The position numbers and the translations under genes are program-made. A DNA stretch of 64,000 nt from Escherichia coli (GTDB lineage: Bacteria > Pseudomonadota > Gammaproteobacteria > Enterobacterales > Enterobacteriaceae). This document shows positions 1,009-4,468 of the stretch, piece by piece (within the stretch, counting starts at the first letter, position 1; every line of letters begins with the position of its first letter). A model generated the notes under the pieces. It was given only the letters and a program-made list of their open reading frames with translations. It did not search any database and was not told the DNA's origin. Where the stretch lies: the NCBI RefSeq assembly GCF_003334765.1, contig NZ_QOWT01000001.1. One strand, given 5' to 3'.

Positions 1009-1614
1009 TTACTTTAAGCCTTCCGCTGACAGCGCGTCTTGTACTTCCGGACGTTCAGCCATACGTTGCATAAATGCTGCAATGTGCTCTAACCCTTCCA
1101 GATTCAGTTTCACCGCGTATGCCCAGCGCAGAACCGTAAACAGATAGGCATCAGCAATTGTAAATCTTTGCCCGCAGATCCAGTGCTCATCCTTCAGTGC
1201 CTCGTTCACATATTGCAGCTTCTTCTCCAGCTGCGCGCGAACTGTCGGTTTGTACTCTTCCGGTGTATCAGGGCGAAACAGAGGTGTGAAACCTTTATGC
1301 AGCTCGGTGGCGATGTAATTCAGCCATTCGATGGTTTTATAGCGGGAAATACTGTTTACCGGTGCCAGCAACTGGCGGTCGGGGACGCTGTCGGCAAGAT
1401 ACTGCATAATCGCTACGCCTTCCGTCAGCAAAGTACCGTCATCCAGCAGCAATGCAGGCACCTGCCCCTTAGGGTTAACGGCAAAGTAATCGTCACCGTT
1501 TTCGAGACGTTTTTTCATTAAATCCACGCTGACGAGGGTAAAATCCTTTCCGCTCTCACGCAGGGTGATATGGGAAGCGAGAGAGCAGGCACCCGGTTTG
1601 TAGAACAATTTCAT
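1009..1614 (-). CDS. gstA: glutathione S-transferase
   Basis: 201-aa [28 protein letters not shown]...; GST fold. Confidence 0.93.
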
Positions 1615-1719: not shown

Positions 1720-3222
1720 TTACGCTACGGCTGCTTTCGCCGCTTTGTCTGCAGCGTCATCCTGCGTCATGCGGTGCAGTTTCGGCGCGGTCAGCAGCAT
1801 CAGTACTGCAATAACGGCAGTAGCGACACCAATCTGCAAGAATACGCGACCATAGACTTCCAGTGACATCAGCGGATCGGTAACGTTATCCGGCACAGCC
1901 ATCATACCCGCAACATAACCACCAATCAGGTTTGCACCGGCAGTGGTCAGGAACCAGCTACCCATAATGAAGCCCATCAGACGCTGCGGAACGAGTTGAG
2001 CAACCATTGCCAGACCCAGACCAGAGATCATCAGTTCCCCGATGCTCTGCAGGCCATAGCTTGCGACCAGCCAGCTTACAGACACGATACCAGCGTCAGA
2101 CGCGAATTTCGCACCCAGCGGCAGAATCAGGAACGCACCAGAACACATCACCATGCCGATTGCAAACTTGGTTGGCATCGGCAGGGTATCGCCCATCTTG
2201 TTATAGATAGCGGCCAGAATCGGACTACCGATGATGATCCAGAACGGGTTCAGTGCCTGATACTGCTCAGGTTCTACGGCCAGACCCAGAATGGAGTGCT
2301 CAACGTTACGAATCGCAAAGAAGTTCAGTGACGTTGGCATCTGGCTGTACAGCACGAAGAAGATAATGGCTTCGAGCATCAGGATGAAGGCAACGATCAT
2401 TTTACGACGCGCAGCACCTTTCATCGCGAAGGCTTCTTTACCGAAGATAACCACGATACCGAAGGCAACAACGCCCAGCGCCATACGCGCAACTTCCTGA
2501 TTGTGCAGCAGCCAGGTGGCGATAGCGATCAGTGCCACAACACCAATAATGGTCAGCAGCAGGTTACGGTAGTTGATAGGCTCGAAGTCTGGTTTTGAAC
2601 CGTACTGTTTAACCCAGCGTTGGCAGAAGGCGAAGTTAACGATAGTGATCAGCAGGCCTACAACGCTCAACGCAAACGCAACACTCCAGCCGTATTTCGC
2701 GGCCAGCCACGGCGTAGCAATCATAGAGAAGAAAGAGCCGATGTTGACGGACATGTAGTACATGGTGAATGCACCGTCCAGACGCGGGTCGTTTTTCTCA
2801 TAGCATGTAGAAAGCAGAGAAGACGGGTTAGCTTTAAACAGGCCGTTACCGACCGCAATAGCCGCCATACCCATATAAACGATACCGGCGTCGTGACCAG
2901 ACCAGGCAACCAGAGCATAACCAATCGCCAGCACAATAGCGCCGAGCATAATTACGCGTTTAGTACCCAGTACCTTGTCACCTAACCAGCCGCCGATAGC
3001 GACCAGACCATAAACCAGGGCACTAAAGGAAGAGAAAAGGGTGATTGAATCCGCTTCAGACATACCCAGTTGTTTAACCAGGTAAACAGCCATAATTCCT
3101 TGTAGGCCGTAATAACCAAAACGTTCCCATAACTCAATCGAGAAGATGAGATAGAACGCCTTCGGTTGTTTGAAAGCGTTCAAACTGACGCTTTCAGTTG
3201 GTTTTTGGTTTGCAGTGGACAC
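1720..3222 (-). CDS. dtpA: proton-dependent di/tripeptide permease (POT family)
   Basis: 500-aa [30 protein letters not shown]..., multi-TM POT transporter. Confidence 0.93.
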
Positions 3223-3806
3223 TTTTACCTCTTTTTTTACATCCCATATTAACGGGGGTGCTTTCTCGCGTTATGTATAAAAAACATACGCGCAATTGTT
3301 ATAGTGGGAGGGGAAACGGCAGGTAATGTTCACTATCTTGCACTTTCAGACAAGTCCTTTGTAATAATCTGTTACATATAACTGAGGCGGGGAATTCAAC
3401 CATTCCGGGAAATGTTATCCAGCGTTAAATTTTTCAAAAAACGTAACGGCAGATTTTTTCACTGCACTGAGAGGGGGGTGATGGCTTAACGGCGATATGT
3501 TCTGCTATTTAGCGTTTTTACTAGTGAGATAGTCCAGTTTCTGAAAAATAGCCAGTGTAATGTTTTGTAGGTCAATATTTGTTGCGTGTGTAAATTTAAA
3601 TGATTTTAACCTGATTCTTGCAATGTTTTTACATTGCGACAGCATCGTGATCTTGATCACGAATGAATAGAAAATTTCGCTATTAAAAAAACAATTAACC
3701 TGCATTTTTGGTTATCCGCAAACGGATTACCTGATGATAACGCTAAGCAATGGCATCATTGACGTTAAAAAGATGTTTTAAAAGAGGATAAAGAAAGGTT
3801 ATCAAT

Positions 3807-3834
3807 GGGGTAATCGGTGTTACCCCTTTTCTTC
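3807..3834 (+). terminator. hairpin plus T-run abutting the nth stop (bidirectional terminator candidate)
   Basis: ggggtaa/ttacccc stem with tcggtg loop followed by ttttcttc on the plus strand; overlaps the nth stop codon. Confidence 0.4.
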
Positions 3835-4468
3835 AGATGTCAACTTTCTCTTTGTATTCACAAAGATCTTCAATAATACAAGAGCCACAGCGGGGCTTGC
3901 GGGCAATGCAGGTATAACGCCCGTGCAGGATCAACCAATGGTGGCAGTCGACTTTAAACTCTGCTGGAACCACTTTCAGTAGCTTTTCTTCTACCTGTTC
4001 GACGTTTTTCCCCGGCGCAAATTGAGTACGATTACAAACGCGGAAAATGTGCGTGTCGACAGCAATAGTCGGCCAGCCGAATGCAGTGTTTAATACGACG
4101 TTGGCTGTTTTACGACCTACGCCGGGCAGGGCTTCAAGCGCAGCACGATCTTCCGGAACCTCGCCATTATGCTGCTCCAGCAAGATACGGCAGGTTTTGA
4201 TGATATTTTCTGCTTTGCTGTTATAAAGCCCAATCGTTTTGATATAGGTTTTCACCCCTTCAACGCCCAGTTCAAGCATCGCTGCAGGCGTATTCGCCAC
4301 CGGGTAGAGTTTCGCCGTCGCCTTATTAACACTGACATCGGTCGCCTGAGCGGAAAGCAGTACGGCAATCAGCAATTCAAAAGGCGAACTGAAATTAAGC
4401 TCGGTGGTGGGATGAGGATTGTTCTCACGCAGGCGAGTGAGGATCTCCAGGCGTTTTGCTTTATTCAT
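3833..4468 (-). CDS. nth: endonuclease III
   Basis: 211-aa [27 protein letters not shown]..., C-terminal 4Fe-4S Cys cluster; last gene of rsx-nth cluster. Confidence 0.93.
   Translation of the reverse strand: MNKAKRLEILTRLRENNPHPTTELNFSSPFELLIAVLLSAQATDVSVNKATAKLYPVANTPAAMLELGVEGVKTYIKTIGLYNSKAENIIKTCRILLEQHNGEVPEDRAALEALPGVGRKTANVVLNTAFGWPTIAVDTHIFRVCNRTQFAPGKNVEQVEEKLLKVVPAEFKVDCHHWLILHGRYTCIARKPRCGSCIIEDLCEYKEKVDI

Follow-up and report, generated by a model that had tools for sequence, protein, structure and literature searches.

Operon-end intrinsic terminators are G+C-rich stem-loops that lie a few nt past the last stop codon of a transcription unit and carry a U-rich tail on the operon strand; between related genomes their position is kept while the sequence of the stem turns over. 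Bidirectional intrinsic terminators, reportedly found by SEnd-seq between convergent genes genome-wide in E. coli, are A-rich on one side and U-rich on the other, so that a stem with U residues after it can form on either strand. Stem-loops at RNA ends can also act without a U-tract, and Dar and Sorek are said to have described, in 2018, protective 3' stem-loops on Rho-terminated transcripts. Finally, control regions of the ompF type combine an OmpR-activated promoter, repressed at high OmpR, with conserved elements that reach several hundred bp upstream at fixed spacing. The gap between nth and dtpA in E. coli can be compared with each of these systems. Our analysis indicates that the hairpin at positions 3807-3826, at the nth end of this gap, is probably the 3'-end stem-loop of the rsxABCDGE-nth operon, ending nth-sense transcription and/or shielding the 3' end of the mRNA.

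The window, by which we mean the whole 64,000-nucleotide stretch of E. coli DNA that was analyzed, runs in reverse complement to MG1655 (positions convert as K-12 coordinate = 1715991 - window position). Over the 851 bases that surround the hairpin and the gap, it matches E. coli K-12 with 100% identity, and these bases are found in 5,424 of 5,426 complete E. coli genomes. An earlier note on this DNA had described a long, AT-rich dtpA-nth gap, and the gap does span 610 bp (3223-3832) with a GC content of 36.9%, compared to 50.0% for the window as a whole. The RefSeq K-12 annotation contains no feature between nth and dtpA. The genes and segments referred to below are as follows.

1009-1614, minus strand: gstA
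1720-3222, minus strand: dtpA
3223-3318, minus strand: structured dtpA leader, 96 nt
3319-3707: dtpA control region with fixed spacing, 389 bp
3708-3832: variable spacer, 125 bp, including the nth hairpin at its end
3708-3806, no strand: stretch separating the nth hairpin from the dtpA control region, of low conservation in the 45-species alignment
3807-3826, no strand: G+C-rich hairpin GGGGTAA-tcggtg-TTACCCC with a 7-8 bp stem, from sequence and folding
3827-3833, plus strand: TTTTCTT run directly 3' of the hairpin, from sequence and the consensus scan
3833-4468, minus strand: nth (endonuclease III), the last gene of the rsx-nth operon
Upstream of nth, minus strand: rsxE, rsxG, rsxD and rsxC

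The hairpin begins 6 nt past the nth stop codon. Sequence, folding and the consensus scan agree with the earlier description of a plus-strand T-run that overlaps this stop, in that the run and the nth stop codon (TCA at 3833-3835 on the plus strand) share one base, the last of the run and the first of the codon. When read on the nth strand, the same run is an A-rich hexamer (AGAAAA) that separates the stop codon from the stem. The plus strand of the hairpin folds at -11.3 kcal/mol (z -3.0), which was equaled by 2 of 200 dinucleotide shuffles, and the minus strand at -10.5 kcal/mol (z -3.4), equaled by 1 of 200. The plus-strand fold consists of an 8-bp stem (one G-U pair included) followed by UUUUCUUC, and thus has the direct U-run of an intrinsic terminator; the consensus scan scored the hairpin as terminator-like on this strand and not on the minus strand. 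In the nth sense, a stable G+C-rich stem-loop (7-bp stem) is present just past the last gene of the unit. The sequence 3' of this stem in K-12 is AUUGAUAA (AUUGAUAACCUUUCUUU), with 3 U in 8 nt, so there is no adjoining U-run on the nth strand, and a U-rich stretch starts only 10 nt farther on. In a 71-nt fold, the upstream A-tract and this distal downstream U-rich stretch can pair, lengthening the stem. Judged by sequence alone, the K-12 hairpin would be a better terminator for the plus strand than for nth. An origin of the hairpin as a repeated element was ruled out, as its sequence occurs once per genome.

We scanned for the Nth protein in one genome per species, which gave 80 loci, including 45 species in which dtpA follows nth with a gap of 522-718 bp. 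Across these 45 species, the first 40 nt past the nth stop have a mean MFE of -11.9 kcal/mol, compared to -4.1 kcal/mol for the other 40-nt bins of the gap, and this first bin is the most stable of the gap in 71% of the species (Mann-Whitney p ~1e-14). Across Enterobacterales, the hairpin thus keeps its position but not its sequence: the stems are unrelated between species yet are still paired, as the following examples illustrate.

E. coli: GGGGTAA/TTACCCC
E. albertii: TGGGTAA/TTACCCA
Citrobacter: GGGGCA/TGCCCC and GGAGGA/TCCTCC
Cedecea: GCCCGG/CCGGGC
Leclercia: ACCGTCG/CGACGGT

Paired stems with differing sequences are the usual pattern for terminators, and in this respect, as well as in the placement of the stem-loop a few nt past the last stop, the locus behaves as an operon-end intrinsic terminator does. 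The polarity of the flanks was assessed in the 37 species that have a clear core hairpin. On average, the 8 nt downstream of the hairpin in the nth sense contain 3.7 U, whereas the 8 nt upstream contain 1.8 A (Wilcoxon p = 2.6e-5 for this contrast across the 37 species). At least 5 U among the 8 downstream nt were found in 10 of the 37 species, and at least 5 A among the 8 nt upstream of the stem in just the two Escherichia representatives. Thus, most related genera have the U-rich tail on the operon strand that is expected of an operon-end terminator, with the U-rich flank of the hairpin pointing in the nth direction, while a plus-strand T-run was not found in any non-Escherichia genus examined (37 species with a clear hairpin). 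Since the position is conserved and the U-rich flank faces nth in other genera, the ancestral and general role of the hairpin is that of an nth-sense operon-end hairpin. The plus-facing T-run is a peculiarity of Escherichia, stemming from the A-rich hexamer between stop codon and stem.

Variation within Escherichia leads in the same direction. The K-12 65-mer around the hairpin is unchanged in 4,006 of 5,426 E. coli genomes. A second E. coli allele has the same stem with the flank CCCC-TGATCTTTAG; here TGATCTTT replaces TTTTCTTC and the T-run is broken. The exact 65-mer of this TGATCTTT allele is present in 946 of the 5,426 genomes (~17%). In E. albertii the flank reads CCCA-TTTGCGTT, and the plus-strand T-run is weak or disrupted. 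Within E. coli, therefore, the stem is invariant and both flanks vary, and a stem that stays constant while the T-run changes freely argues against selection for plus-strand termination. Selection on the T-run is thus not visible, given that it is missing outside Escherichia, weak in E. albertii and disrupted in 946 of the E. coli genomes.

These comparisons also bear on whether the hairpin is simply a chance inverted repeat without function on either strand. The repeat is short (20 nt), and the tables of Adams et al. 2021 contain no experimental 3' end for it, as a chance repeat would predict. However, shuffled sequences seldom fold as well on either strand, the hairpin recurs at the exact position with unrelated sequences in most of the 45 species, and the E. 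coli stem stays invariant between flanks that vary. With these observations in hand, an origin by chance is hardly credible.

A functional bidirectional terminator, or insulator, would assign more weight to the plus-strand T-run. In this scenario, the hairpin would also halt antisense or spurious plus-strand transcription arising from the AT-rich dtpA control region, protecting rsx-nth from head-on polymerases. AT-rich DNA is commonly a place of spurious transcription initiation, and the adjoining 600 bp are AT-rich. The hairpin also makes a good plus-strand terminator by its stem (8 bp, -11.3 kcal/mol) and by the UUUUCUUC that follows, and its A-tract and distal U-rich stretch pair to lengthen the stem, as in bidirectional terminators, with which it shares an A-rich and a U-rich side and the capacity of both strands to form a stem and then U residues. 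On the other hand, the nth strand has its U-run ~10 nt away from the stem, and the plus-strand T-run is unconserved: it is absent from all non-Escherichia genera examined, weak in E. albertii, and broken in the 946 E. coli genomes that keep the stem. Moreover, nth and dtpA are co-directional (both on the minus strand), so the hairpin has no convergent gene as a partner, unlike bidirectional terminators in their usual place. Shuffled sequences contain more promoter-like sites than the gap does, and the tables of Adams et al. 2021 list no plus-strand 3' end. We therefore regard such an insulating role as unlikely. The earlier note had suggested a bidirectional terminator for the rsx-nth operon; taken as an operon-end hairpin that only looks bidirectional, this suggestion is essentially correct, as it fits the conserved position and the U-rich flank that faces nth in other genera.

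The preferred reading, a 3'-end stem-loop of the rsx-nth operon, can be set out as follows. The hairpin would terminate nth-sense transcription and/or protect the 3' end of the rsx-nth mRNA. In Escherichia, the AGAAAA between the nth stop and the stem yields, when read on the other strand, a T-run that mimics a plus-strand terminator. A polymerase that reached the hairpin on the plus strand would probably be stopped, as a by-product and not as a conserved function. In the nth sense of K-12, the hairpin may instead block exonucleases after Rho-dependent termination, a possibility that fits the data equally well. This latter possibility recalls the protective stem-loops of Rho-terminated transcripts, since a stable hairpin at the mRNA end without an adjacent U-tract would fit the nth strand of K-12; unlike those transcripts, the gap has no Rho-termination region according to the tables of Adams et al. 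2021. K-12 also departs from the typical operon-end intrinsic terminator in that its adjacent U-run is on the opposite strand, the operon strand having AUUGAUAA and the distal U-rich stretch. As K-12 is without an adjacent U-run on the nth strand, we infer efficient intrinsic termination there from the hairpin, and with such a poor sense-strand U-tract the ending of nth transcripts by the hairpin in K-12 stays presumptive. Overall, we take the hairpin to be an ordinary operon-end stem-loop, and the seemingly reversed T-run to be an accident of six bases peculiar to this lineage.

The earlier note had further raised the possibility that the hairpin marks an unannotated plus-strand transcript, and had pointed to promoter prediction and to Term-seq as ways of checking for it. 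Neither of these approaches, nor searches for conserved ORFs and RNA families, lent support to such a transcript, and the lack of conservation of the T-run also speaks against it. A consensus scan of both strands of 3000-4100 recovered 0 sigma-70-like sites, compared to 2.5 expected from shuffles. With a position weight matrix (PWM), the best plus-strand promoter score was 7.0, which is below the mean shuffle maximum of 8.8; the same PWM scan does recover the known activator-dependent dtpA promoter, with a modest score. A search of 3000-4000 against Rfam at E-values up to 10 returned only noise matches, far under the gathering scores. Every ORF of 15 codons or more, on either strand, gains stop codons or loses its start or stop in the Escherichia and Citrobacter orthologues, and some of the ORFs of the gap are already disrupted within Escherichia. 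Candidates rejected because they are not conserved as ORFs include a 66-codon ORF at 3505-3705 on the minus strand, a 36-codon ORF at 3560-3670 on the plus strand, and a 15-codon ORF at 3734-3781 on the plus strand, 25 nt ahead of the hairpin. Thus no small protein gene with start, frame and stop conserved in orthologues was found, and conservation shows no 3-nt periodicity.

Published 3'-end and operon tables are in keeping with these predictions. The curated E. coli Term-seq tables of Adams et al. 2021 list neither 3' ends nor Rho-termination regions at 1711xxx-1712xxx, and hence no 3' end in the gap, on either strand; the same tables have no dtpA or nth entry, and the SMRT-Cappable-seq tables (Yan 2018) have no entry at the nth-dtpA gap. 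It may be that nth-sense and plus-strand transcripts are both too rare under the conditions used by Adams et al. 2021. Promoter scans, ORFs and annotation revealed no upstream transcription unit on the plus strand that the hairpin could terminate. Similarly, a small RNA gene with its own promoter and terminator, and with conservation or a family match, was not recognized, and 3705-3806 is unconserved between genera. From these results, we infer that plus-strand RNA is probably absent from the gap, and a hidden plus-strand gene that would use the hairpin is unsupported by any signal sought.

The remainder of the gap is best understood from the side of dtpA, for which the following features are relevant.

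3223-3317, minus strand: dtpA 5' leader, ~96 nt from a start near 3318, with two conserved hairpins at 3291-3268 and 3256-3243
3318-3353, minus strand: dtpA core promoter, with -35 TTGTCT at 3353-3348, -10 AACATT at 3330-3325 and start at ~3318
3335-3394, minus strand: OmpR-bound, dtpA-activating region (TGTAACAGATTATTACAAAG), the ChIP-exo peak converted to window coordinates
Within 3408-3565, minus strand: conserved blocks with invariant spacing, at ~3565-3522, 3506-3491 (AGCAGAACATATCGCC), 3464-3455 (AGTGAAAAAA) and 3433-3410 (AAAATTTAACGCTGGATAACATTT)
3646-3661, no strand: candidate CRP-type palindrome CGTGATCTTGATCACG, a match to TGTGA-N6-TCACA
3662-3701, minus strand: conserved distal block containing AGGTTAAT, a T-run and AAATTTTCTAT, located where the dtpA control region has its upstream edge

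The gap had been said to hold the dtpA promoter, and three independent lines of evidence, namely ChIP-exo, PWM prediction and mutation, fix this promoter at the dtpA-proximal end of the gap, with a start at ~3318. The OmpR ChIP-exo peak at dtpA spans 1710621-1710680 (NC_000913.2), where OmpR is an activator centered at -46.5 (PMC5438342 supplement). The PWM identifies TTGTCT-17-AACATT with a predicted start at 3318, in agreement with the start derived from OmpR ChIP-exo. In long-term stationary-phase cultures, a recurrent A>T mutation, 503 nt from nth and 108 nt ahead of dtpA, reportedly raises dtpA mRNA ~23-fold (PMC7858067). This mutation corresponds to window position 3330, the first base of the dtpA -10, and it turns the weak -10 AACATT into TACATT, which accounts for the reported 23-fold rise. 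The OmpR region at 3335-3394 is ~90-100% conserved in the 45-species alignment, and dtpA is reported to be activated at low OmpR and repressed at high OmpR (Brosse et al. 2016, PMC5175337).

Between this promoter and the dtpA start codon, the two leader hairpins sit upstream of the dtpA Shine-Dalgarno sequence (GAGG at 3231-3228), and both carry compensatory changes across genera. The two-hairpin structure, which was drawn by hand (automatic RNAalifold on the leader gave no structure), passed the pair-count controls, with 79.5% of alignment cells paired versus 34-51% in slid controls. Its covariation score is 0.312, compared to at most 0.12 in the controls, and 0 of 500 shuffles reach 0.312.

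The dtpA promoter alone does not account for the 610 bp of the gap; the conserved upstream control region does, the gap being this long because dtpA has both this large region and the structured leader. In an alignment of 30 species from many enterobacterial genera (27 of the species non-redundant), window 3707-3319 yields 388 aligned columns with a gap fraction of 0.0001 and a mean identity of 61%. In the 45-species alignment, blocks that are 80-100% conserved are separated by freely diverged DNA, and the anchor motifs of the region keep invariant mutual distances across species. For example, the motif search matched the anchor CAGGTTAAT in 34 species, and in 32 of these it is located 476-480 bp from the dtpA start; the two remaining matches, 179-180 bp from the dtpA start, are unrelated. 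By comparison, the nth-proximal 125 bp of the gap differ in length by tens of bp between species and are unconserved between genera. Conservation of the control region has neither a 3-nt (coding) nor a 10-11 nt (one DNA face) periodicity, and RNAalifold, applied to both strands of the upstream region in the 27 non-redundant species, detected only the CRP palindrome and the OmpR-site repeat. Given the lack of periodicity and of conserved RNA structure beyond palindromic protein sites, the region therefore behaves as a DNA-level control region of fixed geometry. Within it, the blocks at 3410-3433, 3628-3634 and 3693-3701 contain GTTAA or TAACAT motifs, which resemble putative OmpR/ArcA-family half-sites. 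The documented OmpR site at 3335-3394 contains TGTAAC and TTACAA.

The candidate CRP box in this region has perfect GTGA and TCAC cores, and GTGATCNNGATCAC occurs once in the 64-kb window versus 0 expected. In 31 of 45 species, a box that matches at least 8 of 10 consensus positions lies 428-431 bp away from the start codon of dtpA; measured from the nth stop, the distance varies between species from 138 to 209 bp. Only one dtpA start site is documented, and the candidate box is centered 335.5 bp upstream of it. This is outside the range of -41.5 to ~-93 and too distant for classical class I or class II activation from that start. A genomic SELEX study lists tppB (dtpA) as a new CRP target (PMC3105977). 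The region thus resembles an ompF-type OmpR control region in its OmpR-activated promoter, repressed at high OmpR, and in its conserved elements several hundred bp upstream at fixed spacing; it differs in that the only recognizable distal site of dtpA is the putative CRP box at -335.5.

The same box could be taken to serve an unannotated plus-strand sRNA of ~140 nt, for instance a CRP-dependent one that starts near 3695, with the CRP box at -41.5, and ends at the hairpin. The conserved palindrome at 3646-3661 would be at class-II distance from such a start, a weak -10-like TATTAA lies at 3682-3687, the 40 bp that follow the box on the plus strand are strongly conserved, and a terminator-like hairpin follows ~140 nt farther along. 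In addition, folding of the 146-nt stretch is somewhat more stable than that of shuffled sequences (z -2.2). Nevertheless, the key final T is missing from TATTAA, other genera do not conserve a -10 at this position, and the PWM leaves TATTAA unranked; the part that would be transcribed, 3705-3806, is unconserved between genera, and other genera are without the plus-strand T-run that would end the transcript. Nor does the stretch have an Rfam match, an annotation or a Term-seq 3' end in Adams et al. 2021. Importantly, the distance of the CRP box is fixed relative to dtpA and not to the hairpin. We thus consider such an sRNA very improbable, and retain the operon-end stem-loop as the explanation for the hairpin.

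For the CRP box itself, one possible though tentative interpretation is a nucleoprotein switch of fixed geometry, in which CRP, together with proteins of the OmpR or ArcA type at GTTAA-like motifs, would bring the DNA onto the OmpR-dependent promoter by wrapping or looping it; looping at the dtpA control region is presumed in this proposal. If true, such a switch would account for the activation of dtpA at low OmpR and its repression at high OmpR. In a weaker variant, the CRP box would drive an unmapped upstream promoter, and if this promoter faced the plus strand, its transcripts would terminate at the hairpin in E. coli. As seen from comparative sequence analysis, the indel-free, block-conserved region with a CRP box at -335 appears to be the only mildly surprising feature of this locus.

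Two local complementarities in the spacer were noted. The segment 3772-3792, which reads UUUAUCCUCUUUUAAAACAUC in the nth/dtpA sense and follows closely after the nth hairpin, shows 76% complementarity, over 21 nt, with the ribosome-binding region of dtpA at 3223-3243, and in a read-through transcript UUUAUCCUCUUUUAAAACAUC could mask the dtpA Shine-Dalgarno sequence. As its core ATCCTCTT is conserved only within Escherichia, this complementarity is probably due to chance. A 10-nt complement between 3722-3731 and a hairpin arm was likewise judged to be chance or Escherichia-only, since neither partner structure is conserved.

These results have some practical consequences. The candidacy of the hairpin and gap for a hidden gene can be closed. 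The nth-ydgR gap (3223-3832) is widely chosen as a chromosomal landing pad for reporters and promoter libraries, on the assumption that it is neutral (PMC2847246; bioRxiv 10.1101/2020.01.04.894907), and our analysis indicates that this landing pad is mostly constrained dtpA control DNA and not empty. The hairpin would also stop transcription that exits a landing-pad insert toward nth. Furthermore, the 389-bp indel-free region and its conserved putative CRP box at -335 provide a handle on how dtpA may integrate carbon (CRP) and envelope (OmpR) signals. One natural insertion into this region was observed: in one E. coli genome (NZ_CM172481.1), an IS66-family element lies in the gap at approximately window position 3620, with the CRP box on one side and the proximal dtpA promoter on the other.
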